A DNA stretch of 64,000 nucleotides from an uncultured Acidimicrobiaceae bacterium (lineage in GTDB: Bacteria > Actinomycetota > Acidimicrobiia > Spongiisociales > ZC4RG35): the NCBI GenBank assembly GCA_964571765.1, contig CAZNDH010000005.1, positions 10,427 through 74,426 of the forward strand, in the 5' to 3' direction. Position 1 is the first letter of the stretch, and every line of letters begins with the position of its first letter. The notes below the pieces were generated by a model, which worked only from the letters and a program-made list of their open reading frames with translations, had not been told where the DNA came from and searched no databases. Below, piece by piece: positions 2,128 through 26,265 of this stretch. A program made the translations under genes and the position numbers.

Positions 2128-3288
2128 ATGCGTCTCCGCATGCCCCCTGTTCTCCTCGCTCTAGTCGTTGCGGTCGTCGCCGGGACCACCGGCCAGCCCG
2201 CGATCGCACTTGATCTGCAAAAGGCCGAGGACCAGCTCGAGGATGCCGGCCGCCAGGTGGAGGTGGCCGATGGCCTGGTTGACGATGCGGTGGCCAACCG
2301 CGCCGAGATCGAGGCCCAGCTCGCGGATAGCATCGCCCGGGCCAACGACCTGGCGGCGGCCCTCTCCGAGGTGGGGGCCAGCCTCGACAGGCTCGCCCAT
2401 CGGGTAGGGACCGCCGACGTCGAGCTAGCGGCCATCCAGACGCAGATCGAGCACCAAGCGGTCGACGCCTACATGACGGTCCTATCTTCGCCTTCGCTCT
2501 CCCTGGTGGGAACCAGTTCGGTAGAACACGCCATGGTGGTGTCCTCGGTGGTCGAGGACGTGGTGGGCAGTGGCCGGGCCAAGGCCGACGAGCTGTTCAT
2601 CAAGCGACGGAGCCTCGAGGAGCTCCAGCAGGTCTACCTGGCCCAGCAGGATGACTACGCCGTCCTCCAAGAGCAGGTCCACTCCGAGGTGGAGCGGCTG
2701 GCCCTTCTATACCAACAAGCCGATGCCCACGTCGCCGCAAGCGTCCGCCGCGCTGGTGCCGCCGACAGTGAGTACCGGGCCGCCCTCACTGCGGTCGAGC
2801 TGGCCAGGGCCAGAGCCGATGAGGATCAGCGTCAGCAGGCCCGAAGCCCGACCACGACCACCACCTCACCGGGGGCAAACTCACCTGGTGCCACCCCACC
2901 GGCTGCCACCACTCCGACCACCACAGCTACCACCAATCCGCCAACGCCGGGAGGGGGCGGTCCCTGGAACCACCCGCCGGCGGTGGAGAGGTGGCGGTCC
3001 CTCGTCGTCGAGTTCTTCCCCTCAGACCGTGTCGAGGAGGCATTGGCCATCATCAACTGCGAGAGCAACGGCGACCCCAACGCCTACAACCCCTATTCGG
3101 GCGCCGGTGGGCTTTTCCAGTTTCTCCCCTCCACCTGGGCGTCGACCGCACCCAAGGCGGGCTACCCCGACGCCAGCGTCTTCGAACCTGAGGCCAACAT
3201 CGCCTCGGCGGCTTGGCTGGCCAAGCGGTTTGAGGAGTTGGGCCAGTACTACTGGCAGGCGTGGAGCTGCCGTCGGGTGCTCAGCTAG
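2128..3288 (+). CDS. secreted coiled-coil protein with a Pro/Thr linker and a C-terminal lytic transglycosylase (SLT/Rpf-like) domain
   Basis: N-terminal signal-like 'MRLRMPPVLLALVVAVVAGTTG', a long helical Ala/Glu/Leu region, the linker 'SPTTTTTSPGANSPGATPPAATTPTTTATTNPPTPGGGG', and the catalytic-type motif 'INCESNGDPNAYNPYSGAGGLFQFLPSTW'. Confidence 0.72.
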   Translation: MRLRMPPVLLALVVAVVAGTTGQPAIALDLQKAEDQLEDAGRQVEVADGLVDDAVANRAEIEAQLADSIARANDLAAALSEVGASLDRLAHRVGTADVELAAIQTQIEHQAVDAYMTVLSSPSLSLVGTSSVEHAMVVSSVVEDVVGSGRAKADELFIKRRSLEELQQVYLAQQDDYAVLQEQVHSEVERLALLYQQADAHVAASVRRAGAADSEYRAALTAVELARARADEDQRQQARSPTTTTTSPGANSPGATPPAATTPTTTATTNPPTPGGGGPWNHPPAVERWRSLVVEFFPSDRVEEALAIINCESNGDPNAYNPYSGAGGLFQFLPSTWASTAPKAGYPDASVFEPEANIASAAWLAKRFEELGQYYWQAWSCRRVLS

Positions 3289-4285
3289 GAGGGCCCACCG
3301 ACTCGTCCAGCGAGGTCTCACGACGATCGGCGCGCAACGAAGCGACAATGGTCAGCGTCAGCACCAGGGTGATGAAGCCCAGGCTGACCACGATGGGGAA
3401 GTGATACCACTGGGCGAGGATCATCTTGATCCCAACGAACCCCAGGATCACCCCGAGTCCGAGGTTGAGGTAGCGGAAACGACCCGCCATCCCCGCCAGG
3501 AGGAAGTAGAGCGCCCTGAGCCCGAGGATGGCGAAGGCGTTGGACGAGAAGACGATGAACGGCTCCCGGCTGACGGCCAGGATCGCCGGTATCGAGTCGA
3601 CGGCGAACACGACATCGGTCGACTCGATGAGGATGAGCACGGCGAAAAGGGGTGTGGCCAGCAGTCGCCCCGCTTGCCTGGTGAACAGCTTCTGTCCGTC
3701 ATACTCGGTGGTCGAGGGGATCACCCGTCGTACCAGTCTGAGGACCGGGTTCTGCTCCGGGTGGACCTCCACCTCCCGATGGCGGGCGATCCTGACCGCG
3801 GTATAGAGCAGGAATGCCCCGAAGACGTAGAGGATCCAGTCGAACCGGTCGATCAAGGCGATGCCAGCGAAGATGAACACCGCCCTCAGGACCAGGGCAC
3901 CGAAGATCCCCCAGAAGAGGACCCTGAACTGGAACTGGGGCGGGACCGAGAAGTAACTGAGGATCACCGCCCAGACGAAGACGTTGTCGACCGAGAGGCT
4001 CTTCTCGATGAGATAGCCGGCCAGGTACTCCCCCGCGGCCTGGCCTCCCTGCCACGACAGGATGACCAGGGTGAATCCCAGCCCTATGGCGATCCACACC
4101 GACGACTCGATGGCAGCCTCACGCAGACTGATGACATGGGGCTTGCGATGGACGAGGAGCACGTCGACGAGGAGGAGGGCGCCGACGAAAGCGGCGAAGG
4201 CGAGCCAGACCCAGGGGGGGACGTCGAAGCTGGCAAAGGTGTGCCCGCTGCCCTCGGAGACGGCAAGAAGCGAAGGCGGGCTCAC
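3281..4285 (-). CDS. terC: TerC family integral membrane protein
   Basis: Multi-TM sequence with 'YLIEKSLSVDNVFVWAVI' and 'IESTDVVFAVDSIPAILAVS' TerC-type repeats. The ORF 3281..4714 was trimmed to the GTG at 4285, which forms a GTGA overlap with the stop of the upstream Usp gene. Confidence 0.85.
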   Translation of the reverse strand: MSPPSLLAVSEGSGHTFASFDVPPWVWLAFAAFVGALLLVDVLLVHRKPHVISLREAAIESSVWIAIGLGFTLVILSWQGGQAAGEYLAGYLIEKSLSVDNVFVWAVILSYFSVPPQFQFRVLFWGIFGALVLRAVFIFAGIALIDRFDWILYVFGAFLLYTAVRIARHREVEVHPEQNPVLRLVRRVIPSTTEYDGQKLFTRQAGRLLATPLFAVLILIESTDVVFAVDSIPAILAVSREPFIVFSSNAFAILGLRALYFLLAGMAGRFRYLNLGLGVILGFVGIKMILAQWYHFPIVVSLGFITLVLTLTIVASLRADRRETSLDESVGPPS

Positions 4286-5061
4286 GCCCCCCCCGCCGAG
4301 GCCACCATGGCGTTGCAGGCTGCTCCCCGGACCACGGCCCCTGCGGTCGAACCGAGACGGAGGCGCTTCCAACCCGTGAGGCCCTTGGTCCCCAGGACAA
4401 CCAGGTCGGGCCGGGTGGTGTCCAGGTGGCGCAAGATGGCCGCCGTGGGAAAGTCCTGGGTCACGACGGCGGTCACCGAGGCAACCTTGCCGGCCAGAAT
4501 CTCGGTCGCCTCGGCGGCGCTGGTGTCGGCTTGGGCGCGGCCATCGTCGACTGCTAGAACGGTGACCGCGGTCCGGGCTGCCATCGGCCAGGAGGTGAAA
4601 GCGGTCACCGCAGCCTTGGAGTGTTCGGAGCCGTCGGCGCAGATGGTGACCTCCTCCACCGGAGAACCGTCTCCGATCACCGCAGTCGGGGCAGGTGGGT
4701 GGTGGAGAAGCCACTCGGTGGTCCCTCCCAGAGCCCGACCCCTGGTCATCCGGCTGCTCCTGCCCACCACGATCAGGTCGGCGTCCCCTCGATCTCCGAG
4801 CATTGGCCGAGGGTCACCGGCAAACCTGGCATAACCCACCCCGACGGCCCCTTCAACAGACTTGGACCTGGCCCAGGGTGGTGACCAGGCTGTGACCATT
4901 GGGGGTTCACCCCAGACGATCTCCGATTCGTCGGCCGTCATCACCTCAACCCTCCACCCGGGCCAGGGATGGGCGGTGAGCCATTCCCAGACCGTGTCGG
5001 ACACGGCCGAGCCGTCGTCACCGACCACGACGAGGCAGGATCCATCGTCGGTTGGAGCCAT
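4282..5061 (-). CDS. universal stress protein, tandem Usp domains
   Basis: Two Usp-like halves, with the C-terminal ATP-binding-type motif 'VVLGTKGLTGWKRLRLGSTAGAVV'. The start is taken at the ATG at 5061 (Met12 of the ORF). It is translationally coupled to terC. Confidence 0.72.
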   Translation of the reverse strand: MAPTDDGSCLVVVGDDGSAVSDTVWEWLTAHPWPGWRVEVMTADESEIVWGEPPMVTAWSPPWARSKSVEGAVGVGYARFAGDPRPMLGDRGDADLIVVGRSSRMTRGRALGGTTEWLLHHPPAPTAVIGDGSPVEEVTICADGSEHSKAAVTAFTSWPMAARTAVTVLAVDDGRAQADTSAAEATEILAGKVASVTAVVTQDFPTAAILRHLDTTRPDLVVLGTKGLTGWKRLRLGSTAGAVVRGAACNAMVASAGGA

Positions 5062-5162
5062 GCCGCCATCGTAGTGGCGACCGTGTCCTCCCACTTCTGA
5101 GCTCTCAGGGCTTCACAACTGGCCGGAATCGCCTATTTTGTCAGGAGTCACAAGCAACGGGG

Positions 5163-5594
5163 GTGTTGCGCTTGCCCATATTCGACGGCGTCGTGACCCT
5201 GAACGACGATCAGGTGCCGGTGATCATCGGCCTGGAGGACGACGGCATACGCATGTCGACCAACGGGACCGAGATCGGCGAATGGTCGATCGGGGAGTTC
5301 ACCATCGCCCATCGCGGGGACGGGAAATACACAATCACAGCCGACAACGAGAGCCTGGTCTTCACCCCAAACCGGCCCGACCTGTTCGCGGTGGGTCTGG
5401 GTCAGCCGCTGGCGGCGAGGCCCTCGGCGACTGCGGCGACCCAGGCCCGGTCCGAGGGTGATGAGCTGGGTGAAGTGGTATCCGGGCCCGACGGAGCCCC
5501 TCAGGCCCGCCCGATCACAAGAGCCCTCTTCTACACCCTGGCGGGCACCACGGGCGCCCTCGGGGTGTGGGCGCTGTACCGGCTGATCTTCTAG
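5163..5594 (+). CDS. hypothetical tail-anchored protein (soluble beta-rich N-terminal domain plus one C-terminal TM helix)
   Basis: Non-biased composition from 'LRLPIFDGVVTLNDDQVPVIIGLEDDGIRMSTNGTEIGEWSIGEFTIAHRGDGKYTITADNESLVF'. C-terminal hydrophobic 'ALFYTLAGTTGALGVWALYRLIF'. The start (GTG 5163 or TTG 5166) is uncertain. Confidence 0.45.
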   Translation: MLRLPIFDGVVTLNDDQVPVIIGLEDDGIRMSTNGTEIGEWSIGEFTIAHRGDGKYTITADNESLVFTPNRPDLFAVGLGQPLAARPSATAATQARSEGDELGEVVSGPDGAPQARPITRALFYTLAGTTGALGVWALYRLIF

Positions 5595-5604
5595 CCGGTC
5601 CTCC

Positions 5605-6165
5605 TCAGACCTCCATCCACCCTTCGACCCGGTCGAGGAGGTACATGGATATCTCGCGCGAGCTGTCGAGCACATCGCACAGCTGTTCCCGTCCGAGCAC
5701 CACGTCGACCAGGCTGACCCTGGTCTTGCCCTGGACCATCAGCCTGCGCTCGGGGGCATCGGTGACTGCGGCGAACGAGTCGATGGCCGAGACCTCGATG
5801 GGGAGGACGGTGCCGGCGATGCCAGCGATATCGGTTGCCAGGACGAGAAGGTCCGGTGGCCTGTGCAATGGCGGAAGCGCCCAATTGAAATACAGGTCGA
5901 GGTAATAGTCGTCCTCCGGCTCCTCGAAGTCGTCGGTCATCTCGTCGAGACGGTCGCGTAGGGAAAGGATGACCTTGGGATCGCCGTCCAACGCCAGGTG
6001 GAGGTCGATGGGGCCTCCGCAGCCGGACTCGGGGTGCACGTCCACTTCCCAGGACTGACGGAGCGAGTAGGTCTCCATGAAATGCCGCTCGTCATGGACG
6101 TGGAAGCCATGCTCGGTGGCGTGCTCTTTGAGGTCGGCGAAGAAGCCGGCGATGTCGACAGACAT
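5605..6165 (-). CDS. hypothetical acidic protein, 186 aa
   Basis: Clean ATG-started ORF with protein-like composition ('FFADLKEHATEHGFHVHDERHFMETYSLRQSWEVDVHPESGCGGPIDLHLALDGDPK', acidic patch 'DEMTDDFEEPEDDYYLDLYF'). I recognise no family. Confidence 0.5.
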   Translation of the reverse strand: MSVDIAGFFADLKEHATEHGFHVHDERHFMETYSLRQSWEVDVHPESGCGGPIDLHLALDGDPKVILSLRDRLDEMTDDFEEPEDDYYLDLYFNWALPPLHRPPDLLVLATDIAGIAGTVLPIEVSAIDSFAAVTDAPERRLMVQGKTRVSLVDVVLGREQLCDVLDSSREISMYLLDRVEGWMEV

Positions 6166-9045: not shown

Positions 9046-9923
9046 GCGACCAGGTGATCTTCGACCGGGGGTATCGGACCTATGACGGTCCGAGAAGAGG
9101 GCCGTCGGGAGCGAGACGGGCGGTGTACAAGGAGGGCCTGCGCCGGGTATTCGGCCTGGGTCGGAAGGGCCGCTACAAGGTGTTCCCCTGGACACTGATA
9201 AGCATCGCCCTCGTCAGCGCGGCCATCTTCGTCGGCATCCACTGGGCGATCGGTGACATCGCCGAGAGCATCGGAGCGGGAGTGCCCAGCTATGGAGAGC
9301 TCTTCGACTTCTACTCATGGGTCTCCCTCTTGTTCATCGCCTTCGCCGGACCTGCGCTTCTCATCCCCGATCGGACCAAGGGGGTCCTCTCCATCTACTT
9401 CTCCCGACCCCTGACCGTCGACGGCTACCTGACCGCCAAGGTCGGTGCCTTCGCCACGGTGGTCGGAGCCATATATCTGGTCCCTCAGCTCGTGCTCCAC
9501 ACCGGCCTCTCCTTGATCTCCACCGACGGCTTCCTCGGATACATGGCCGACAACCTCGACGTACTGTGGAAGGTGCCGGCAACCGCGCTCGGCTTCGTCG
9601 CCCTCCACTGGGCCCTGATCTTCGCCCTGTCGGCGGTGATCGGCCGACCGGGAATCGCGGCCGCCGCCTATTTGGGGGTCATCATCGCCGGAGGGGGCAT
9701 CGCCGGACAGGTGGCCACCGCCTCGTTCCCGGGGGCGAGATGGGTTTCGCTGCTCGCCCTCGACCAGCACCCCCGGATCATCCGGGACCACCTGTTCAAC
9801 GACACCGTCGACTACCCGGCGGAGATCGCCGGATTCGAGGTGTGGGCTTCGGTGGTTGTGATCGCCGTGGTGGTTGCCCTCGCCGCGTGGTTCGTCCGCT
9901 CCCGATACCGGAGGCTGGCATGA
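9042..9923 (+). CDS. ABC-2-type membrane permease-like protein
   Basis: GTGA overlap with the upstream ATPase. N-terminus 'VIFDRGYRTYDGPRRG', then about 6 hydrophobic segments. Confidence 0.62.
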   Translation: MSDQVIFDRGYRTYDGPRRGPSGARRAVYKEGLRRVFGLGRKGRYKVFPWTLISIALVSAAIFVGIHWAIGDIAESIGAGVPSYGELFDFYSWVSLLFIAFAGPALLIPDRTKGVLSIYFSRPLTVDGYLTAKVGAFATVVGAIYLVPQLVLHTGLSLISTDGFLGYMADNLDVLWKVPATALGFVALHWALIFALSAVIGRPGIAAAAYLGVIIAGGGIAGQVATASFPGARWVSLLALDQHPRIIRDHLFNDTVDYPAEIAGFEVWASVVVIAVVVALAAWFVRSRYRRLA

Positions 9924-10837
9924 CCGACACCATCGTGGTCACCGATGTCTCCAAGTGGTTCGGGCTCAAGGTAGCGGTGAGCGAGGTGTCCGTCGGCTTC
10001 GGGCCGGGAGTCACCGGTCTGCTGGGTCCCAACGGGGCTGGCAAGACCACCTTGCTCCGCCTCATCGCCGGTCTGCAGAGACCTTCCCAAGGCCAGGTCC
10101 GGGTGCTCGGGGTGGATCCCCGTGCGGAGGTGGACGTCTACCGGAGGATGTCGCTTGTCCCCGAAGACGAGTCGATGTACGACCAGGAAACCGCCCTCCG
10201 CTTCGTGGAGACTTCGGCCCGCCTCGCCGGAGATGGGGACGCCAGGGCGACCGCCGAGCGGGCCTTGGCCACGGTGGAGCTGACCTCGGACGCACGACGT
10301 GAGCTGGGCAATTTCTCCAAGGGCATGCGGCAGCGGGCCAAGGTGGCCTCGGCCCTGGTCACCGACCCCGAGATCCTCCTGCTCGACGAGCCTCTCAATG
10401 GCGCCGACCCGGTGCAGAGGGCCCAGCTGATCCGCCTCTTCAAGGAGTTGGGGGATGCCGGGCGCACCGTGATCGTCTCCTCCCACGTTCTAGCCGAAGT
10501 GGAGCGCATGGCCGACCGTGTGGTCGCCATGGTCGACGGCCGGCTGGCCGCGGTGGGCAGCGTTGCCACCATCAGGGCAGCTATGACCGACCGGCCCCGC
10601 CAGGTCTTCATCGAGTGCAGCCATCCCCGGCTTCTCGCCGGGGAGTTGATGAGAGTCGAGGGCGTCGTCGGGGTCCACGTCTCGGGTGACAGCCTGCGGA
10701 TCGAGGCCTCCGACGCCCGCCAGGTAGCGCTGGCCATCCCCAGGATCGCCCTGGACAAGGGCATCACCCTCTCCAGCTTGAGCCCCTCCGACGAGTCCCT
10801 GGAGTCTGTGTTCCGCTACCTGGTCGAGAAGCGATGA
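9920..10837 (+). CDS. ABC transporter ATP-binding protein (second copy)
   Basis: ATGA overlap with the preceding permease. Walker A 'GPNGAGKTT', signature 'FSKGMRQRA', Walker B 'ILLLDEPLNGAD'. The ORF 9317..10837 was trimmed to the ATG at 9920. Confidence 0.85.
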   Translation: MTDTIVVTDVSKWFGLKVAVSEVSVGFGPGVTGLLGPNGAGKTTLLRLIAGLQRPSQGQVRVLGVDPRAEVDVYRRMSLVPEDESMYDQETALRFVETSARLAGDGDARATAERALATVELTSDARRELGNFSKGMRQRAKVASALVTDPEILLLDEPLNGADPVQRAQLIRLFKELGDAGRTVIVSSHVLAEVERMADRVVAMVDGRLAAVGSVATIRAAMTDRPRQVFIECSHPRLLAGELMRVEGVVGVHVSGDSLRIEASDARQVALAIPRIALDKGITLSSLSPSDESLESVFRYLVEKR

Positions 10838-11565
10838 CGCTGGTCTCACATCTCTACCGGAGGCTGATGCGCCGGGGACGGGTGATCGCCCTGCTTGCCC
10901 TGGCCTCGGTCCCTGCCGTGGTGTTCTGGCTGGTGTCGATCGACACCCCTCCCGATCGCCGGGGGTCAACCTACCCCGAGATCATTGCGTCGGGGGGATA
11001 CTCCTTCGCCATTGCCGTCCTCATCCTCACCGTGGCCACCCTGCGCGACGAGAGAGACGCGGGGACCCTCCCCTACATCTACATGAAGCCGATAGCTCGT
11101 CCCGCCTTCTCGATCTACTCGGTGGCCGCGGGTGCCCTGGCCGCTCTGGTCATCGCCGGGGGCGGCTGGCTGCTCAGCTTTCTCTCCGCGCTGTCCGTGG
11201 GTGTCGATCCCACATATGCAGTCACCGGGCTCAGCCTGTTCGCCGCGGCGGCCATCGGCTATTCGGGAGTGTTCGTGCCTCTCGGATACCTGGTGCCCCG
11301 AGCCCTGCTGGTCGGCCTGGGATACGTGGTTGTGGTGGAGCTGATCGTCGCTTCCGCAGTGGCTGGTCTCGCTCAGATCTCCATATGGCGGATCGCGGTC
11401 TCCATCTACGCCGACCTGGTGCCCGGGAGCCCGTCCCCCGCCGTCGGCGAGATCCTCGGGCCGGTGGAGCCGGGCCTTTGGGGGGGCATGGCCAAGCTGG
11501 GCGTAGTCCTACTTCTCGGCTGGGCGACCCTCACCTGGGCATTGCGTCGTCGCGACGCGGTCTGA
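10834..11565 (+). CDS. ABC-2-type membrane permease-like protein (second copy)
   Basis: ATGA overlap with the preceding ATPase. 243 aa with about 6 hydrophobic helices. Confidence 0.6.
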   Translation: MTLVSHLYRRLMRRGRVIALLALASVPAVVFWLVSIDTPPDRRGSTYPEIIASGGYSFAIAVLILTVATLRDERDAGTLPYIYMKPIARPAFSIYSVAAGALAALVIAGGGWLLSFLSALSVGVDPTYAVTGLSLFAAAAIGYSGVFVPLGYLVPRALLVGLGYVVVVELIVASAVAGLAQISIWRIAVSIYADLVPGSPSPAVGEILGPVEPGLWGGMAKLGVVLLLGWATLTWALRRRDAV

Positions 11566-11579
11566 GGTAGCTGGGTCGC

Positions 11580-12581
11580 TCAGTACTCGGCATCGGGCCG
11601 GCGCTGTCTGGAAGGCTGGACTCGGGGTGGCTCGCCGGGCATCTTCGGGTAGTGGGGCGGCCATGGGGCGTCACCGAGGCCTTTGGCCTCATCCCGTGCC
11701 ACCCACTCCATGAGCAAGTCGATCCGGCCCGCCGACAGATCGATCCCATCGGTGAGGTCACCCTTCTCCTCCCAGCGGGTGGCGAACCCGTCCAGGGGGA
11801 AGTCCTCGATCTCGACGTCCTCCAGCTCGTCCCAGGTGAATGGAGCGGAAACACATCCTGTGGGTCGCACGCCGTAGGCTGAGGACACCGTCTTGTCCCG
11901 GGCGTTCTGGTTGTAGTCGATGAACACCCCGTGGCGCTCCTCCTTCCACCAGGCGGTGGTCACCAGTCCCTCCATCCTCCTCTCCAGTTCCCGGGCGAAG
12001 GCGAGCACCGCCCGCCGGGTCTGGAAGAAGTCCCACAACGGCTCGATTCGCACATAGACATGGATGCCCCGGCTGCCACTCGTCTTCGGCCAGCCCACCA
12101 GTCCGACCTCGTCGAGCAGCTCCCCGGCGCCGGCCACCGCTTGTTTCACCTCGGCGAACCCCACTCCCGGTGTCGGGTCGAAGTCGAAACGAAGTTCGTC
12201 TGGGTGGTCGGTGTCCTCGGCCCGGACCGGCCAGGGATGGAAATCGAGACAGCCCAGCTGGGCCAGCCGGACTACGTCGGCTTCGGACCGGGGGACGTTC
12301 ATCCGGCCGGGCCGCTGGGATGGGAACCTGATCTGCACCGTGTCGAAAGGGGTATTGGCCGCGGCCCGCTTGTGGTAGATCGGCTCGACGGTGACGTCTG
12401 TCATGTACCGCTTCAGCATGGTGGGCCGACCGGCGATGCCTCGGAGCGCGCCCGGGACCACCCGGATGAAGTGATCGACTATGTCGAGCTTGGTCCATCC
12501 CTGGTCGGGGAACACCACCCTCCCCGGACTTGTGATCCGGATCTCCTCCCCGCCCACAACTACGTCGGTGTGATCAGACAT
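11580..12581 (-). CDS. LigD-type polymerase/primase domain protein (stand-alone Prim-Pol)
   Basis: 'RITSPGRVVFPDQGWTKLDIVDHF', 'GRPTMLKRY', 'DFHPWPVRAEDTDHPDELRFDFDP' and 'GSRGIHVYVRI' are archaeo-eukaryotic-primase-type motifs. Confidence 0.85.
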   Translation of the reverse strand: MSDHTDVVVGGEEIRITSPGRVVFPDQGWTKLDIVDHFIRVVPGALRGIAGRPTMLKRYMTDVTVEPIYHKRAAANTPFDTVQIRFPSQRPGRMNVPRSEADVVRLAQLGCLDFHPWPVRAEDTDHPDELRFDFDPTPGVGFAEVKQAVAGAGELLDEVGLVGWPKTSGSRGIHVYVRIEPLWDFFQTRRAVLAFARELERRMEGLVTTAWWKEERHGVFIDYNQNARDKTVSSAYGVRPTGCVSAPFTWDELEDVEIEDFPLDGFATRWEEKGDLTDGIDLSAGRIDLLMEWVARDEAKGLGDAPWPPHYPKMPGEPPRVQPSRQRRPDAEY

Positions 12582-12587
12582 GACTAT

Positions 12588-12625
12588 CTAAGGTGTGGGC
12601 CGGGTTCACAGAGCCCCCACCTTAG
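12588..12625. promoter_or_regulatory. 38-nt inverted repeat in the divergent region upstream of the Prim-Pol gene
   Basis: 'CTAAGGTGtGGGC -N12- GCCCcCACCTTAG', 12 of 13 positions pairing. It begins 7 nt upstream of the Prim-Pol ATG (12581). Confidence 0.35.
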
Positions 12626-12668
12626 AAAGTGGCGCGATGCCCCGGAAGATCAGTGTGAAAGTGTCGAT

Positions 12669-13148
12669 GTGACTGACCAGGCTCCTCACCCCGAGCCCGC
12701 TGAACTGGCCGATTGGCACCGTGCCCTGGCTCCGGTGGCCTTCAACCACACCTGGGAGCTTCTCGACCAGGATGGTCTCAGCCGGGAACAGGAGGAGGAG
12801 ATGCTCTCGGCAGCCTTCGCCCAGAGGTACCACTGGTATCAGGTTGGCGAGCCGAGAAGCTGGGCTATTGCCGATTGGCAGGTGTCACGGGTGGCCGCGG
12901 TGCTGGGCTACGCCGACCTTGCCTTCCGCTTCGGGCACCGATCACTCGAGATCTGCGTCGAGCATGGCCTCGACCCGTTCGTCACCGGCTTCGCCCATGA
13001 GGCGATCGCCCGGGCCGCCGCTGAGGTAGACGACCTCGACACTTTCACCGAGCACCTCGAGTCGGCCAAGTCCAAGCTGGCCGAGGTGGAGGACCCCGAG
13101 GAGCGGGAGACATTGGAGGCCGATCTCGCCGAGATGTCCGAACGATGA
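12669..13148 (+). CDS. hypothetical helical protein, about 159 aa
   Basis: The protein-like part of ORF 11931..13148 begins near 'VTDQAPHPEPAELADWHRALAPVAFNHTWELLD'. The GTG at 12669 is the first plausible start. ATGA coupling to the downstream GNAT gene. Confidence 0.5.
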   Translation: MTDQAPHPEPAELADWHRALAPVAFNHTWELLDQDGLSREQEEEMLSAAFAQRYHWYQVGEPRSWAIADWQVSRVAAVLGYADLAFRFGHRSLEICVEHGLDPFVTGFAHEAIARAAAEVDDLDTFTEHLESAKSKLAEVEDPEERETLEADLAEMSER

Positions 13149-15159: not shown

Positions 15160-16845
15160 GTGAGCACCGCGGCCGCGCCGCTCCGCATCCCCCGGTTCCG
15201 CGCCATGTGGACCGCCACCGTCTTCTCTGCCACGGGGACCTTCATCCAGACAGTGGCCGGGTCATGGCTGATGTTCGAGTTGACCGGCTCCAGCACCTGG
15301 GTGGGCCTCATGGTTGCCTCGGCCACCCTCCCCCTTCTCTTCTTCTCCCTGACATCGGGAGCCCTGGCAGACATGTTCGATCGCACCCGAATCATGCTGA
15401 TCGCCCAGTCGGTGATGGGCCTCTCCGCTCTTGCCATGGCGGTGCTGAGCCACCTGGGCCGGATGACCCCCGGGCTGCTCCTCCTCCTCGGCCTTATGCT
15501 CGGCCTGGGGGGCGCCCTGAACTTGCCTGCCGCCCAGGCTCTCCTTCCCGACCTGGTCCCTCGGGGGATGATCGCCTCGGCGGTGGCCCTCCAGTCGGCG
15601 GCGTACAACGCCGCCCGAGCGGTGGGGCCTGCAGTCGGTGGCTTCCTGGTGTTCGCCTACGGCCCCGCCCTGGGGTTCGGGATAAACGCCCTCTCCTATT
15701 TGGCCCTGATCGCCGTCCTGGTGGCCATCGCCCCCAGCCTCACCGAACGGGCCAGAGAGACCGCCTCAGTGTCGAGCGCCACCACCATCGGGATCCGTTA
15801 CGCCCGTTTCACCCCCCCTTTCCGCAGGCTCCTCGCCCTGGTCGCCGTGTTCGGGGTCACCTCGGCGGTGTTGCAGGCCATCCTGCCGGTCCACACCGAC
15901 AACCTGGGAGGAGGCGCCGGCACCTTTGGTCTCCTCCTCGGGGCCATGGGTGCCGGCGCTCTCATGGCGGTGGTCATCCGGCCCCGACTGGTGGCAGCGG
16001 TCGATAGCCATATCGTTCCCTACACCATCTCCGCGTTCGGGCTGGCCGGGGTCCTGCTCGCGGTGGCACCCAACCTGTGGGTGGCCGGAGGGGCCATGTT
16101 GCTCTCCGGGGTCTTCTGGCTGCTCACCCTGTCGACCCTCAACACCACCGCGCAACTGATGGCCCCGGAGTGGATCAGGGGTAGGGCGATGTCGCTCTAC
16201 ACCCTGGCCTTCGCCGGCATCACCCCGCTGGGAGCGATCCTCTCCGGAGTCGTCGCCGATCAGGTGGGGACCGCCGGCACTCTGGTTGCCTTCTCCTTGG
16301 GGTCGATTGCCCTGGGGCTGGCTACCCCCCGCTTCGGGGTGCCGCGCCCCGAGGACGTCGAGTCCCCTGAGTTCACCAACGTCGATTCGACCACGGCTCA
16401 CCAGGGCACCCACATCGAGGGCGGCCCGGTGGTGGTGCTCAACACCTGGGTGATCGACGAGGAGGACTATCCCCGCTTCCTCATGGTGATGGGTCAGCTC
16501 CGGCTGGTCAGGCTGAGCACCGGCGCCTACCGGTGGCGGCTGATGCGCAACGTCTCCGACCCGACCCGGATCACCGAGCTGTTCGCCAACCACAGCTGGG
16601 AGGAGCACCTCGCCCAACACCGCCGGATCGACGACGCCTCGGCGAACGTGATTCGCCGGGCACGCCAGTTCGACCGTCGAGGGGGGCCGGTCACCCGCCA
16701 CCTCATCGCGGTCGACGTCGCTGAAGCGATCGACTCACTCGACTTCGAGGTCATGGTGGCCACTCACGAGGAGATGCATCGCACAGACGGCTCGATTCCC
16801 TTGACTACCGGAGATGACCCTAGGCCAGGGCCATCTCCCTCTTGA
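15160..16845 (+). CDS. MFS transporter (EntS/MFS_3-like, about 12 TM) with a C-terminal soluble extension of about 150 aa
   Basis: GTG start preceded by GGAGAGG. 'RFRAMWTATVFSATGTFIQTVAGSWLM' and 'GALADMFDRTRIM' are MFS_3-type motifs. The hydrophilic tail starts at 'EFTNVDSTTAHQG...VVVLNTWVIDEEDYPRFL'. Confidence 0.8.
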   Translation: MSTAAAPLRIPRFRAMWTATVFSATGTFIQTVAGSWLMFELTGSSTWVGLMVASATLPLLFFSLTSGALADMFDRTRIMLIAQSVMGLSALAMAVLSHLGRMTPGLLLLLGLMLGLGGALNLPAAQALLPDLVPRGMIASAVALQSAAYNAARAVGPAVGGFLVFAYGPALGFGINALSYLALIAVLVAIAPSLTERARETASVSSATTIGIRYARFTPPFRRLLALVAVFGVTSAVLQAILPVHTDNLGGGAGTFGLLLGAMGAGALMAVVIRPRLVAAVDSHIVPYTISAFGLAGVLLAVAPNLWVAGGAMLLSGVFWLLTLSTLNTTAQLMAPEWIRGRAMSLYTLAFAGITPLGAILSGVVADQVGTAGTLVAFSLGSIALGLATPRFGVPRPEDVESPEFTNVDSTTAHQGTHIEGGPVVVLNTWVIDEEDYPRFLMVMGQLRLVRLSTGAYRWRLMRNVSDPTRITELFANHSWEEHLAQHRRIDDASANVIRRARQFDRRGGPVTRHLIAVDVAEAIDSLDFEVMVATHEEMHRTDGSIPLTTGDDPRPGPSPS

Positions 16846-17491
16846 AACGCTTCCAGTCGGAGCTCTTCGTCGACCAGAAGATATCGAAAACCACGCTCAC
16901 CAGGAAGAACACCACTAGGCCCCAGACCGCCCATGAAGGCAACCCGGCGGCGATTGCTGCGCCCAGCAAAGCCAGCGGAAGGATCTTGGTGGTGATCGCC
17001 CCGGCGGCGTGCATCCAAGCCCTGTTGGTCGCCGGAGCCAGCAGGTAAGTCCGGTAATCCACCTTTATCCCCGGCTGAGGTCGTAGAACGCTTCCGACGA
17101 ACCAGCTGGTGAAGCGGATGCCAAGGAGGCGCCCCACCACGAGATGGGCCAGGCCGTGGGTGCTGGGGAGCATCGCCACCATGCCCAGATAGAAGACGAC
17201 CACCGCCGCCAACCCGTCGAGGTAGTAGGACAATCCAATAGCGACCAGCCCAGCGACCACCGCAACCGTGGCCAGGAACGTCCCCAAGCCGAAGGGGACG
17301 ACCATGAGGGCCCAATTGCGGTAGGCGGCGTCGTCGAGAGTGGCGATCCGGGCCCCGTACCGCTCGGCGAGCTCGCGATTCCCCTTGACCTGGCGCACTG
17401 CAGCCCAGAAGCCGGTGCCATCCAGCCCCTCACCCCGGGAGACATTCTCCTCCGCCCTTACCAGGGCCGCCTCGATCCCGGGCGTGTCCAT
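16820..17491 (-). CDS. hypothetical membrane protein, 223 aa
   Basis: ATG start. A soluble N-terminus of about 60 aa, then about 5 hydrophobic helices ('WALMVVPFGLGTFLATVAVVAGLVAIGL...'). I recognise no family. The 3' end overlaps the MFS 3' end by 26 nt (convergent). Confidence 0.55.
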   Translation of the reverse strand: MDTPGIEAALVRAEENVSRGEGLDGTGFWAAVRQVKGNRELAERYGARIATLDDAAYRNWALMVVPFGLGTFLATVAVVAGLVAIGLSYYLDGLAAVVVFYLGMVAMLPSTHGLAHLVVGRLLGIRFTSWFVGSVLRPQPGIKVDYRTYLLAPATNRAWMHAAGAITTKILPLALLGAAIAAGLPSWAVWGLVVFFLVSVVFDIFWSTKSSDWKRFKREMALA

Positions 17492-17670
17492 GGTGGAACA
17501 CTAGGGGGGTGCACGGAAAGGTGGCCCACTCCGCAGGGTCTTCCGGGACGGCCTGGCGATTCTCTCGGGCCGGGCAGGCATGGAGGCTTGTGTGACGCCG
17601 CACCACCAACACTCCACCCCGGGAGTCGGAAGGCCAGAAGGCGCAACCTCTGGGTACGTTCTCTCCGGTG

Positions 17671-17695
17671 CAACCGGACGGCGGTTTTCGGGGTT
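17671..17695 (+). promoter_or_regulatory. candidate ECF-type autoregulatory promoter (AACC-N17-GTT)
   Basis: 'gCAACC' (17671-75), 17 nt, then 'GTT' (17693-95). The sigma ATG at 17703 lies 8 nt downstream, so the transcript would be leaderless. The pattern resembles GGAAC-N16/17-GTT promoters but is degenerate. Confidence 0.22.
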
Positions 17696-17702
17696 CTATT
17701 CG

Positions 17703-18224
17703 ATGATGGATGGACTGAGCAAGTCCCTTGCCGGTGATCTCGATCGGGCCTTTCCCGGTGTGGTCGACGCCATGGGCGCCAGGTTGTACTGGGGCCTCCG
17801 TCGGATGTCGGGAAGTCACCATGAAGCCGAGGACCTCACCCAAGAGACCCTGATCCGTGCCTACCAGGCCCTCTCCGGGTACGACCCGGGGCGGATCTCC
17901 GATCTCAACCTGGAGCCCTGGCTGTGGACCATCGCCCTCAATCTGGGACGCAACCATCTCAGGGACCGGGCGAGACGGCCTACGCCGGTGGTCCTCGAGG
18001 ACACCGTGACGTTGTCCGACCCCGACCCGGTCGACACCCGGGCCTGGGACCGCCGGATGGCCGGGCTGAGCGGGCCGCAGCGGACCGCGGTGGTGCTCCG
18101 CCATGTGGTCGGCCTGGGAATCGACGAGATCTGTGAGGTCACCGGGCGCCCGGCGGGGACGGTGAAGGCCGACATCCATCGCGGACTGAGCCGACTCAAG
18201 AAGATCCTGGAGGACGAGAAATGA
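17703..18224 (+). CDS. ECF-type RNA polymerase sigma-70 family factor
   Basis: Region 2 'EAEDLTQETLIRAYQAL...PWLWTIALNLGRNHLRD'. Region 4 'LSGPQRTAVVLRHVVGLGIDEICEVTGRPAGTVKADIHRGLSRLKKIL'. The ORF 17580..18224 was trimmed to the ATG at 17703. Confidence 0.85.
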   Translation: MMDGLSKSLAGDLDRAFPGVVDAMGARLYWGLRRMSGSHHEAEDLTQETLIRAYQALSGYDPGRISDLNLEPWLWTIALNLGRNHLRDRARRPTPVVLEDTVTLSDPDPVDTRAWDRRMAGLSGPQRTAVVLRHVVGLGIDEICEVTGRPAGTVKADIHRGLSRLKKILEDEK

Positions 18225-18976
18225 GCATCGAGAGCCAACTCGCCGAGCTGATCGGCCCGCCACCCGATGGGCTGCACGAGGGGGTCGCCCTGGGCACCGG
18301 GGTGGCCGACGGTTACGACCTGTATCCATCTGCCGTGGGCACCGTGGTGGTTGCCTTCAACCCAAACGGGGTTTCGGCGATCGACCTGGCCGACGCCGAG
18401 TTCGTCGACCGGTTCACCAGCCGCACCGGGCGTACCCTGATCCGAGCCGAGGCCCCCCGGGCCTGGGCAAGGCACCTACCCGGTGCCATCGAAGCGGGCA
18501 CCCCGGGCAAGGTGCCGGTCGACCTCCGCGGAGTGACCCCCTTCCAGGCTGACGTGCTTCGGGTCACCGCCGCGATCCCCCGAGGCGAGGTCAGGCCCTA
18601 CGCCTGGCTGGCCAGGGAGGTCGCCCGCCCCTCGGCGGTGAGGGCAGCCGGCTCGGCGGTCGCCCGCAACCCGGTCCCGCTGATGATCCCCTGCCACCGG
18701 GTGGTCCGCTCCGACGGTCACATGGGGAACTACTCCTTGGGAGGGCCGGAGGTCAAGCTCCGGCTCCTGGAACACGAGGGCGCCGACCCCGTCCGGCTGG
18801 AGAGCCTCGCCGGGCGGCAGGTGAGGTTCCAGGGGAACACCACGACCGGCATCTTTTGCCATCCCACCTGTCGGGCCATCCGCCGCTCCCGGGAGGAAAA
18901 CGTGGTCGGCTTCGGGTCGGCGACACAGGCCGAGTCAGCCGGGTACCGGGCCTGCCTGCTCTGCCGTCCCCTCTGA
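18221..18976 (+). CDS. ogt: methylated-DNA--protein-cysteine methyltransferase (Ogt/MGMT) fused to a C-terminal Ada-type Cys4 zinc module
   Basis: ATGA overlap with the sigma gene. Acceptor motif 'NPVPLMIPCHRVVRSDG'. C-terminal 'GIFCHPTCRAIRRSREENVVGFGSATQAESAGYRACLLCRP' has the CX3C...CX2C spacing of the Ada N-terminal zinc domain. Confidence 0.85.
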   Translation: MSIESQLAELIGPPPDGLHEGVALGTGVADGYDLYPSAVGTVVVAFNPNGVSAIDLADAEFVDRFTSRTGRTLIRAEAPRAWARHLPGAIEAGTPGKVPVDLRGVTPFQADVLRVTAAIPRGEVRPYAWLAREVARPSAVRAAGSAVARNPVPLMIPCHRVVRSDGHMGNYSLGGPEVKLRLLEHEGADPVRLESLAGRQVRFQGNTTTGIFCHPTCRAIRRSREENVVGFGSATQAESAGYRACLLCRPL

Positions 18977-19027
18977 GCCGTTACCCTCGAATGGATGGGC
19001 AACGACACTTCGAGCGGGCGTGACACC

Positions 19028-20959
19028 ATGGAGCAGCTGGCGGTCAACACCATCAAAGGGCTGGCCATGGACGCCGTGGAGAGGGCCAACAGCGGACATC
19101 CCGGCATGCCGATGGGCATGGCCGACATCGCCGTCGTGCTGTGGTCCCGGTTCATCGAGGTCGACCCCGGCGACCCGACCTGGCCCGACCGGGACCGTTT
19201 CGTCCTCTCCAACGGTCACGGATCGATGCTGCTCTACTCACTGCTCCACCTCGCCGGCTTCCCCCTCGACCTCGACCAGCTGATCAACTTCAGGCAATGG
19301 GGCGGCCACACCGCGGGTCATCCCGAGATCCATCAGGAGCTGGGGATCGAGATGACCACCGGCCCTCTCGGTCAGGGGTTCGGGACAGGAGTGGGCATGG
19401 CCCTCGCCGAGGCCCACCTCAGGGCCAGGCTTGGGCCCGAGCTGGTCGACCATCGCACCTTCGGGTTCGTCTCCGACGGAGACCTCATGGAGGGCATCTC
19501 TTCTGAGGCGGCTTCATTGGCCGGTCATTTCGGCCTGGGCAAGCTGGTCTACGTCTACGACAGCAACCAGATCTCGATCGACGGATCCACCGACATCACC
19601 TTCAGCGAGGAGGTCGGTCGTCGATTTGCCGCGGTCAAGTGGCACACCCTGGAGGTGGACGGCCATGACCGGGAGGAGGTGGCCTCGGCGATCGATGCCG
19701 CCGTGGGCCAGGAGGATCGGCCCACCCTGATCATCGCCCACACCCGCATCGCCAAGGGAGCCCCCAACTTGGAGGGAACCGCCGAGGCCCACGGCCAGCC
19801 ACTGGGCGCCGACGAGGTGCGGGCGGTCAAGGAGGCGATGGGGTTCGACCCCGGCTCGGAGTTCCACGTTCCCGAGGAGGTGTACCGCTTTTTCGACCAT
19901 GCCATGGATCGGGGAAGACGGGCCCATGCCTCGTGGAAGCAGCGATTCGACTCCGTCGATGGCGAGGCGGCCGCATTGTGGAAGGCGCTCCACGATCCCC
20001 AGCCGGTGCGTCTCCAGGGCCCCGGCTTCGAGGTGGGCAAGAAAGTCGCCACCCGGTCCTCCTCAGGTGAGCTCTTCGCCGAGATCGCCGAGAAATCCCC
20101 GGGTTTCATCGGGGGCTCGGCCGACCTCGCCGGCTCGACCAAGACGGTGATCGAGAAGGGACGTCTCTTCTCCAGCGAGGATCTCATCGCCAGAGATATC
20201 CCCTTCGGGGTCCGTGAGCATGCCATGGGCACCGCGGTCAACGGGATGGCAGTCCACGGAGGGCTCAGGCCATACGGGGCCACCTTCTTCGTGTTCAGCG
20301 ACTACATGCGCCCGGCGGTGCGTCTCTCCGCACTGATGAGCGCTCCCTCCATCTGGGTTTGGACCCACGACTCGGTGTTCCTCGGCGAGGACGGCCCCAC
20401 CCACCAGCCGATCGAGCACCTCGCCTCGTTGCGGGCCATGCCAAACCTCTGGGTGATCCGGCCGGCCGACGCCAACGAGGTCCTCGAGGCATGGGAGATC
20501 GCCATCAACAGGAGCGACGGGCCGGTGGGCCTGGTACTGACCCGACAGGGCGTCCCCACCCTCGATCCGGTGCCGGGAGGGTTGTCCAAGGGTGGTTACC
20601 TGCGTCGGGATGGCGCCGACGTCACCCTGATCGCCACCGGGTCCGAGGTGGCGGTCGCCTTGGGCGCGGCGGAGCTGCTCGCCGGGGAGGGGATCGAGGC
20701 CAGGGTGGTATCACTCCCCTGTTGGGAACTTTTCTTCGAGCAGCCGGCGGAGTATCGGGAGGAGATCCTGGGCACCGCTCCCCGGGTGTCGGTGGAGGCG
20801 GCGGCCACCTTCGGGTGGGAGCGAATCGTCGGTGAGCATGGGCTGACCATAGGCATCGACCACTTCGGGGCTTCGGCGCCGGACACTGTGATCGCCGAGA
20901 AGCTCGGCTTCACCCCCGGGTCGGTGGCGGCCAAGGTCCGGGATCACCTGGGGGCCTGA
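19028..20959 (+). CDS. tkt: transketolase
   Basis: 'NSGHPGMPMGMADIA', 'DRDRFVLSNGHGSMLLYSLLHLAG', 'GPLGQGFGTGVGMA', 'DGDLMEGIS', 'GEDGPTHQPIEHLASLRAMPN'. The start is taken at the ATG at 19028. Confidence 0.94.
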   Translation: MEQLAVNTIKGLAMDAVERANSGHPGMPMGMADIAVVLWSRFIEVDPGDPTWPDRDRFVLSNGHGSMLLYSLLHLAGFPLDLDQLINFRQWGGHTAGHPEIHQELGIEMTTGPLGQGFGTGVGMALAEAHLRARLGPELVDHRTFGFVSDGDLMEGISSEAASLAGHFGLGKLVYVYDSNQISIDGSTDITFSEEVGRRFAAVKWHTLEVDGHDREEVASAIDAAVGQEDRPTLIIAHTRIAKGAPNLEGTAEAHGQPLGADEVRAVKEAMGFDPGSEFHVPEEVYRFFDHAMDRGRRAHASWKQRFDSVDGEAAALWKALHDPQPVRLQGPGFEVGKKVATRSSSGELFAEIAEKSPGFIGGSADLAGSTKTVIEKGRLFSSEDLIARDIPFGVREHAMGTAVNGMAVHGGLRPYGATFFVFSDYMRPAVRLSALMSAPSIWVWTHDSVFLGEDGPTHQPIEHLASLRAMPNLWVIRPADANEVLEAWEIAINRSDGPVGLVLTRQGVPTLDPVPGGLSKGGYLRRDGADVTLIATGSEVAVALGAAELLAGEGIEARVVSLPCWELFFEQPAEYREEILGTAPRVSVEAAATFGWERIVGEHGLTIGIDHFGASAPDTVIAEKLGFTPGSVAAKVRDHLGA

Positions 20960-25812: not shown

Positions 25813-26265
25813 ATGAGATCCGCGGGTCTTCTCCCTTACCGGCTCGACCGGACCTTGGAGGTCCTGATCGCCCATCCCGGTGGCCCCTATTTCACCCGAA
25901 AAGACGCTGGGTGGTGGTCGGTGGTGAAAGGCCAGGTCAGACCCGGAGAGTCGCCTGAGACGGCAGCGGCTCGGGAGTTCGAAGAGGAGACCGGGTGGCC
26001 TCCGCCGAACCGGCTCTGGGTCCCTCTGGGCGAGACCGTGCTCAAGTCGCGCAAGAAGGTGGTCGCCTGGGCGGTGGAACACGACTTCGACTTGTCCGGT
26101 TTCACACCGGGGACTTTCCTGCTCCACGGCAGAGAGTATCCCGAGATCGACCGTGTCGAGTGGATGGAACCCGATGAGGCCAGGACCAAGCTCAACCCGG
26201 CGCAGCGGGTGTTCATCGACCGTCTAGAGACCCACGTCGGGTTGAATGTATTCAGGAAGGAGTGA
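25813..26265 (+). CDS. NUDIX hydrolase
   Basis: Nudix box 'GQVRPGESPETAAAREFEEETGW'. The ORF 25762..26265 was trimmed to the ATG at 25813, which sits 8 nt after a TAATGT -10-like hexamer (possibly leaderless). Confidence 0.8.
   Translation: MRSAGLLPYRLDRTLEVLIAHPGGPYFTRKDAGWWSVVKGQVRPGESPETAAAREFEEETGWPPPNRLWVPLGETVLKSRKKVVAWAVEHDFDLSGFTPGTFLLHGREYPEIDRVEWMEPDEARTKLNPAQRVFIDRLETHVGLNVFRKE

Follow-up and report, generated by a model that had tools for sequence, protein, structure and literature searches.

What does a DNA repair enzyme do when its gene sits directly behind that of a sigma factor from the extracytoplasmic function (ECF) class, in the slot of an anti-sigma factor? The question is raised by a two-gene operon of an uncultured Acidimicrobiaceae bacterium (GCA_964571765.1, contig CAZNDH010000005.1, 10,427-74,426 of the forward strand; the whole stretch of 64,000 nt is called the window below, and its first letter is position 1). 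In this operon an ECF sigma factor gene is followed by a gene, here termed the partner gene, for an alkyltransferase of the MGMT/Ogt type with a C-terminal Ada-type zinc module. A preliminary description of the same DNA had placed the partner in the anti-sigma slot and had suggested that the sigma factor may replace the helix-turn-helix (HTH) domain of Ada, which implies activation by way of the zinc module; the first idea is supported and the second is not. We lean, with modest confidence, towards reading the partner as a cytoplasmic anti-sigma factor that carries a suicide alkyl-acceptor sensor while also serving as an active repair protein, so that the two genes would form an autoregulated switch. 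The evidence that carries this reading is a short N-terminal extension, which is homologous to part of a zinc-containing anti-sigma (ZAS) domain and is kept in every sigma-linked member of the family.

The sigma factor gene and the alkyltransferase coupled to it

The sigma protein matches Sigma70_r2 (PF04542, E 2.9e-15) and Sigma70_r4_2 (PF08281, E 2.1e-11) in Pfam and passes TIGR02937, the NCBIfam model for sigma70-ECF proteins (57.1 bits, cut-off 42.9). It consists of regions 2 and 4 only, the region 3 and region 1 families finding no match, and among solved structures it comes closest to SigW of B. subtilis and SigE of M. tuberculosis (E about 8e-17). From these matches the gene product is predicted to be an ECF (group 4) sigma-70 factor; no equivalog cut-off was reached, the best being SigE-fam_strep (82 bits against 141.6). 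The start codon is the ATG at 17703 or possibly 17706, homologues at other loci aligning from residue 1-2.

The candidate promoter of this gene has a -35 element TGCAACC at 17669-17675 and a -10 element GGGGTTCT at 17690-17697, with a 17-nt spacer between AACC and GTTC. The -10 core GTTC ends 6 nt ahead of the ATG at 17703, and the mRNA of the sigma operon is therefore probably leaderless or nearly so. TGCAACC-N17-GTTC(T) precedes the sigma gene at every acidimicrobial locus, ending 5-10 nt before the start codon, and of 55 divergent metagenome loci about 45 have AAC(C/G)-N17-GTT(C) some 31-36 nt ahead of the sigma start, so that the AACC-N17-GTT promoter proposed in the preliminary description is borne out far beyond this genome. 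The motif is present in one copy per locus and has a single exact match across the 64-kb window, where a position weight matrix (PWM) scored it at 32.4 bits and the runner-up site at 12.3 bits. The predicted TGCAACC-N17-GTTC promoter points to autoregulation of the sigma operon. As to promoters upstream of alkA/alkB-like genes, for which the preliminary description proposed a search, exact, one-mismatch and PWM searches of the window and of all loci recovered the autoregulatory promoter alone, and no such target was found in any of them. A one-mismatch match at 26077-26103 on the minus strand was dropped, as it sits within a coding region.

The sigma gene ends in a TGA that overlaps the ATG of the partner gene, and this ATGA overlap implies translational coupling of the two. 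In the partner, an N-terminal MGMT subdomain (residues 32 to about 100) is followed by the catalytic domain (residues 107-188), which matches PF01035 (E 1.6e-27); TIGR00589 is passed as well. The acceptor Cys158 (codon 18692-18694) lies within the motif IPCHRVV. By sequence, the PDB entry that best matches residues 27-188 is 1SFE, the Ada C-terminal domain from E. coli (E 1.4e-18), and 1SFE was also the first Foldseek match to the model of the partner (E 8e-12, TM-score 0.81 on the target). Invariant in the partner alignments are Y127, R141, N150, PCHR 157-160, Y171 and E186, which we take to be the equivalents of the human MGMT catalytic set. Judged by its residues, the partner keeps every checkable hallmark of an active alkyltransferase.

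The C-terminal module scores 54.8 bits with Ada_Zn_binding (PF02805), whose gathering score is 23, over profile positions 18-64 of 65; the first 17 positions are missing and a helix of residues 190-198 fills their place in the AlphaFold2 model. Residues 207-250 align to residues 32-74 of N-Ada (1ADN, 1EYF, 1U8B and 1ZGW; E about 1e-7), and a Foldseek search with the module returned 1U8B, 1WPK, 1ZGW and 1ADN. The zinc ligands Cys213 (18857-18859), Cys217 (18869-18871), Cys245 (18953-18955) and Cys248 (18962-18964) align with Ada Cys38, 42, 69 and 72, Cys213 being the counterpart of Cys38, the methyl acceptor. All four are invariant in a 17-sequence alignment, and with few exceptions the 82 complete pairs that we compared retain them. 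In its zinc module, too, the partner thus keeps the features that mark a methyl-accepting site of the Ada type. Neither AraC/HTH_18 nor any other HTH family was found in the partner by Pfam, the MGMT-internal HTH excepted. The gene assignments, the stop/start overlap, the acceptor motif, the C-terminal Zn(Cys)4 module and the absence of an AraC-type HTH had all been read from the bare letters in the preliminary description, and the profile and structure searches agree with it on each. The AlphaFold2 model (71 sequences; predicted local distance difference test, pLDDT, 91; predicted TM-score 0.84) reaches 96-97 in the zinc module and exceeds 90 throughout except for residues 1-20, at about 55.

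Table 1. Positions of the operon and its parts, of a neighbouring gene, and of the comparison loci (window positions unless a locus label is given)
Feature	Position	Strand	Basis or remarks
Candidate ECF-type promoter	17669..17697	+	conserved motif TGCAACC-N17-GTTC
ECF (group 4) sigma factor gene, predicted	17703..18224	+	173 aa; Pfam, TIGR02937
ATGA stop/start overlap, sigma TGA with partner ATG	18221..18224	+	sequence; overlaps conserved in relatives
Partner gene	18221..18976	+	251 aa; MGMT/Ogt with C-terminal Ada-type Zn(Cys)4
Partner N-terminal extension, residues 1-31	18221..18313	+	alignment to zf-HC2 relatives, AlphaFold2
Partner MGMT/Ogt body, residues 32-188	18314..18784	+	PF01035, TIGR00589, 1SFE
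Partner Ada-type Zn(Cys)4 methylphosphotriester-acceptor module, residues 203-250	18827..18970	+	PF02805
Divergent 223-aa protein, apparently multi-pass membrane	16820..17491	-	sequence inspection
zf-HC2-bearing relatives, followed by the same MGMT and Ada_Zn body	P0371, P0375, P0380, P0394, P0432, P0477		PF13490
Extension-less MGMT and Ada-Zn fusions	L128:1228-1941; L147:3001-3681; L149:3001-3690		no sigma gene beside any
Chloroflexota sigma/zinc-less MGMT pairs	L032:3165-4534; L060:3393-4717; L061:3417-4765; L062:3399-4720		4-nt overlap, 4 of 4 loci read

Conservation of the pair and the origin of the N-terminal extension

A scan with one genome per species recovered full-length partner homologues of 52-71% identity at 28 loci, labelled mainly as Acidimicrobiia or Actinomycetota metagenome-assembled genomes, and a sigma homologue (44-74% identity) lies directly upstream of the partner in all 28. 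At ten of these loci (L018-L024, L026, L028 and, largely, L025) the flanking synteny is gone, namely the dienelactone hydrolase, the MFS_3 transporter, the 223-aa membrane protein, the transketolase and the FAD oxidoreductase, and the pair is still present. A metagenome scan with the family alignment added 80 further fusions of 43-65% identity, 62 of them with enough upstream DNA; a sigma open reading frame (ORF) ends at the partner start in 60 of the 62 and, by inspection, in L079 too, L128 being the exception. Over about 110 loci, then, the pairing, the stop/start overlap and the promoter are conserved. Among the 82 complete pairs the two genes, with few exceptions, overlap by 4, 8, 11, 17 or 20 nt or are separated by a very short gap. 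The family is not small, since 158 representatives (50% clustering) match the whole partner at E<1e-30. When the neighbours at all loci were clustered, neither a third gene accompanying the pair nor any recurrent DNA-repair gene emerged. The clusters were subgroup-specific: an EamA-like transporter (assigned by sequence inspection), an uncharacterised protein of about 242 aa that by eye is metallophosphatase-like, and a second sigma gene.

What distinguishes the sigma-linked proteins is their N-terminus. Ahead of the first conserved Gly of the MGMT body they carry 28-52 residues (median 40), the corresponding lengths being 13 in the Ogt of E. coli, 11 in that of M. tuberculosis and 14 in the sigma-less fusion L128, and this length cleanly separates the sigma-linked from the sigma-less members. 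In the AlphaFold2 model of the window protein the extension comprises a helix (3-11), a Pro-rich loop and a second helix (20-26), and that low pLDDT is restricted to residues 1-20 is as expected for a partner-binding element. It follows the pattern h..L..L....(A)P..h...Vh..G..D.Y, with L7, G27 and G31 invariant among sequences that are 51-84% identical.

Longer members of the family, of 297-319 aa, disclose where this piece comes from. They have 45-65 extra N-terminal residues with a C...H-x3-C-x2-C motif, and zf-HC2 (PF13490, gathering score 22.2) matches 6 of the 10 long members scanned, with 22-29 bits. A profile of the long-form N-terminus matches the anti-sigma factors RsiW (5WUQ, residues 1-70, E 8e-7), RslA (3HUG, 8e-6) and ChrR (2e-4), as well as DdvA, and in all three readable contigs (L144, L146 and the fragment L145) the long form stands directly after, and overlaps, an ECF sigma gene. 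A joint alignment places the window extension just behind the CxxC that the long forms carry, and hhalign paired it with the long-form domain over 33 columns (probability 92%, E 5e-7). Its counterpart in RsiW (5WUQ) is the 'APADFTANVMAK' or '...VEAPADFTANVMAK' stretch, which makes up the distal helix of that domain. These alignments mark the extension as what is left of the C-terminal portion of a class I (ZAS-type) anti-sigma domain, and the window protein either descends from genuine ZAS anti-sigma fusions or gave rise to them. It is this extension that we propose as the sigma-binding element.

The converse case is provided by three MGMT and Ada-Zn fusions that lack the extension and have no sigma gene at their side: one (L128) has ahead of it a 374-aa ORF with no match to the sigma profile, one (L147) directly follows a dinB-like (IMS) polymerase gene, and the third (L149) likewise adjoins no sigma gene. 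Since every sigma-linked member has the extension, sigma coupling tracks the N-terminal piece. The earlier placement of the partner in the anti-sigma slot gains from all three lines together: the zf-HC2 relatives stand beside an ECF sigma gene, the tail of their domain has a homologous counterpart in the window protein, and the fusions without the extension are free of a sigma gene.

The same loci bear on another explanation, in which methylation of Cys213 would give the zinc module an affinity for DNA, so that the partner would aid the ECF holoenzyme as an Ada-like co-activator and the sigma factor would take the place of the AraC-type HTH. The close match of the module to N-Ada and the conservation of the Cys38 equivalent are in its favor, and methylated Ada touches region 4 of sigma-70 at some promoters. 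We nevertheless hold it to be improbable. The relatives bear an inhibitory anti-sigma domain and not an activator module, nothing conserved that resembles an Ada-box-like operator is found upstream of the -35 element at the acidimicrobial loci, and coupling follows the extension and persists in proteins without zinc. The last point comes from Chloroflexota (Limnocylindria-like), whose sigma-coupled MGMTs lack the Ada-type module altogether; together with the zinc-bearing fusions that have no sigma gene, they count against the proposal of the preliminary description that the sigma factor replaces Ada's HTH, which would make the zinc module the link.

These Chloroflexota MGMTs, of 230-254 aa, have 58-79 residues ahead of the conserved Gly, with the motif LLRAGDPLP...TR.A. 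Their pairs have a different promoter, with ...CGTCACA just before the start, and their sigma factor is barely nearer to the window sigma than M. tuberculosis SigE is. A short Chloroflexota MGMT relative of 210 aa does not overlap an ECF sigma gene. The zinc-bearing type is present in some Limnocylindrales too, the closest named relatives of the L109 sigma being from Limnocylindrales and other Chloroflexota. Taken together, the sequences indicate that the coupling of an MGMT to an ECF sigma factor arose more than once, or is very old, and the Ada-type module could be an addition that widens the range of lesions sensed.

A predicted suicide anti-sigma switch

In Ada, self-methylation of Cys38 is the regulatory switch, and ZAS anti-sigma factors such as RsrA free their sigma factor upon modification of a zinc-thiolate site. 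By analogy, we infer that the operon runs an Ada-like self-methylation signal on a platform of the RsrA/SigR type. The ECF sigma factor would transcribe its own leaderless operon from TGCAACC-N17-GTTC, and in the unstressed cell the un-alkylated partner would hold the sigma factor through the N-terminal extension, the MGMT body probably helping. Irreversible transfer of alkyl groups from damaged DNA, to Cys158 (from O6-alkylguanine) and/or to the zinc-bound Cys213 (from methylphosphotriesters), would then alter or destabilize the partner, with proteolysis as a possible step in the many relatives that have a C-terminal -AA tail. The sigma factor so freed would yield more sigma factor and fresh repair protein, until un-alkylated partner builds up again and the switch closes. 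Within this scheme the binding of the sigma factor, its inhibition, and alkylation as the releasing signal are what we infer, and the main uncertainty is whether the 31-residue remnant would still bind the sigma factor.

As to the tail itself, 34 of the 82 partners end in -AA (LAA, VAA or AAA) directly after CxxCRP, compared with about 1.6% expected from composition. These partners are found among L020-L143 (e.g. L077, L082, L095 and L109); the window clade ends in CRP(L/V/A) with no tail. The -AA end resembles a degron of the ssrA/ClpXP type, a possible hint of proteolytic control.

Several observations weigh against an anti-sigma function of the window protein. It has no H-x3-C-x2-C motif and no zf-HC2 match at E<=0.1, it lacks helices 1-2 so that about two of the four ZAS helices are left, and a remnant of some 30 residues may not suffice for the inhibition of a sigma factor. 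In the Chloroflexota the extension has no detectable homology to the anti-sigma domain or to the window extension, and since the coupled MGMTs there carry no Ada zinc module, signalling through that module is not required for coupling in general. Apart from the partner, no alkylation-repair gene lies downstream of the promoter in the window or at any locus. Finally, the sole literature that we found on a pairing of this kind, a 2022 review, files it as the group ECF122 under 'no anti-sigma factor, unknown mechanism' (PMC8999054).

On a simpler view the partner is cargo: the sigma factor merely drives a bifunctional repair enzyme, the extension is a leftover, and the sigma factor itself is controlled elsewhere, for instance at the level of transcription, by proteolysis or by an unlinked factor. 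The loss of the ZAS zinc site and of two of the four helices in the window clade, the low confidence with which the extension is modelled, the existence of free-standing MGMT and Ada-Zn enzymes without a sigma factor, and the place of ECF122 among sigma factors that have no anti-sigma factor would all be explained. We regard it as unlikely, though deserving serious consideration, because an autoregulated ECF sigma factor without a brake would run away and no other conserved candidate regulator is at hand. Neutral decay, moreover, predicts something other than an extension that keeps L7, G27 and G31 and is retained in every sigma-linked member, and translational coupling is conserved as well. 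If the partner were only cargo, the finding would come down to an ordinary repair operon under an ECF sigma factor, one of a type already catalogued.

A further view would accept the partner as a sensor of the sigma factor's inducing signal and change the signal. Two zinc-thiolate sites, ZAS and Ada-Zn, are combined in the long forms, and disulphide and electrophile stress are the signals to which ZAS factors answer; the Zn(Cys)4 site, together with the ZAS site in the long forms, might thus be hit directly by electrophiles or oxidants, with the MGMT domain incidental. We give such a thiol or oxidative sensor little credence. The residues that we align with the MGMT catalytic set are all invariant, which argues that repair activity is under selection, and the sole visible product of the operon other than the sigma factor is an alkyl-repair protein, no targets of the thioredoxin or mycothiol type having been seen. 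We keep to the suicide anti-sigma factor as the preferred reading.

If it is true, the partner would represent a new type of anti-sigma sensor, based on the irreversible enzymatic self-modification of a DNA repair protein, and would explain groups of the ECF122 type with an 'unknown mechanism'. The logic of Ada would then have arisen at least one further time, on a transcription platform of an entirely different kind. Going one step further, we suggest, as an idea that for now we would sooner doubt than adopt, that these operons constitute a second, independently wired adaptive response to alkylation, in which the consumption of a suicide anti-sigma factor is the signal. The family would form a series from full ZAS-MGMT-AdaZn proteins through minimal forms like that of the window to sigma-free enzymes, with a parallel, non-homologous coupling in Chloroflexota. 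The hosts are abundant and mostly uncultured Acidimicrobiia and Chloroflexota, and the defined parts, a single promoter with two proteins and a pair of cysteines, could give synthetic biology an orthogonal, alkylation-inducible ECF switch.

Known systems and neighboring genes

The pairing as such is already catalogued, as the preliminary description had allowed. ECF122, a group from the ECF Hub classification (Casas-Pastor et al., 2021) represented by WP_057211282.1 of Cellulomonas sp. Root930, has a 6-O-methylguanine DNA methyltransferase as its conserved neighbor, no anti-sigma factor, and a mechanism given as 'unknown' (PMC8999054). By the description of the group, on which our comparison is based, the window operon is alike in having an MGMT neighbor gene and no classical anti-sigma gene, and the sigma-MGMT association is of the ECF122 type. 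The group identity of the window sigma is uncertain, since at least two MGMT-coupled sigma lineages with different promoters exist. The main text of the classification paper makes no mention of ECF122 or of methyltransferases. A 2023 review of the alkyltransferase family lists fusions with EndoV and with a histone-like domain (AGT-2) and counts Ada in the family; it makes no mention of a sigma factor, nor does any passage describe a C-terminal Ada-zinc fusion. Our literature searches returned no alkyltransferase acting as an anti-sigma factor and no alkylation-responsive ECF sigma factor. The literature searched, in contrast to its record of the ECF122 pairing, is silent on the Ada zinc module, the extension, the ZAS relatives and the promoter of pairs of the window type, and by this measure the anti-sigma-derived reading of the partner, the Ada zinc module, the relatives that bear a ZAS domain and the promoter appear to be new.

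With E. coli Ada, the partner shares the combination of a Zn(Cys)4 methylphosphotriester site and a PCHR site for O6-alkylguanine, and irreversible self-alkylation of a repair protein as the inducer is likely to be the common logic. The order of domains differs, however: Ada is arranged Zn-HTH-MGMT, whereas in the partner the MGMT body comes first and the zinc module second, without an AraC-type HTH, and the output would be the predicted release of an ECF sigma factor instead of direct promoter binding. The partner scores 107 bits with the Ada equivalog NF011964, for which the cut-off is 345, and given this, the missing AraC-type HTH and the reversed order, it is not an Ada orthologue.

The ZAS factors (RsrA/SigR, RsiW/SigW, RslA/SigL and ChrR/RpoE) resemble the partner in lying downstream of, and coupled to, an autoregulated ECF sigma gene; the zf-HC2 domain of the partner's relatives matches RsiW, RslA and ChrR, and the window protein keeps the distal segment of it. 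They differ in what is attached, a membrane anchor, a cupin domain or nothing, where the window protein has a DNA repair enzyme as its sensor and output part.

Stand-alone Ogt proteins, as in E. coli and M. tuberculosis, share the two-subdomain alkyltransferase fold and the catalytic residues with the partner, which adds to them the 31-residue extension, the C-terminal zinc module and the coupling to a sigma factor. The fusion of an O6-alkylguanine acceptor with a methylphosphotriester acceptor occurs as a free repair enzyme, too (L128, L147 and L149). In one contig (L146), a canonical Ogt of 169 aa (940-1449) is encoded 1.5 kb upstream of the sigma/ZAS-MGMT-AdaZn pair (2472-3924), and the anti-sigma-type protein is thus not necessarily the only alkyltransferase of its cell.

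Among the neighboring genes, the divergent 223-aa protein has no Pfam family (DUF6713 gave a sub-threshold match only). It was considered as a possible anti-sigma factor and rejected, being syntenic in 16 loci of close relatives and not in the distant ones. Elsewhere in the window, five ORFs with a gene-like third-position GC have no Pfam match at E<=0.001, at 5052-5591 (+), 5605-6165 (-), 9812-10486 (-), 10834-11562 (+) and 11931-13145 (+).

Eleven metagenome loci (L090, L097, L098, L100, L116, L122, L129, L134, L135, L140 and L142) have a second, divergent ECF sigma gene on the minus strand, about 600-1200 nt upstream, whose product scores 77-97 bits with the family hidden Markov model. It is followed by conserved proteins of about 268 aa and about 338 aa, and the whole would be a back-to-back ECF unit.

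Downstream of the pair, the transketolase gene (18995-20959) starts 18 nt past the partner stop (gap 18977-18994), which leaves no room for a terminator, so that in this genome transcription from the ECF promoter could run on into tkt. Relatives have a wider gap between the partner and tkt, or else an additional 1.3 kb or so of DNA between them (L005, L006 and L008).

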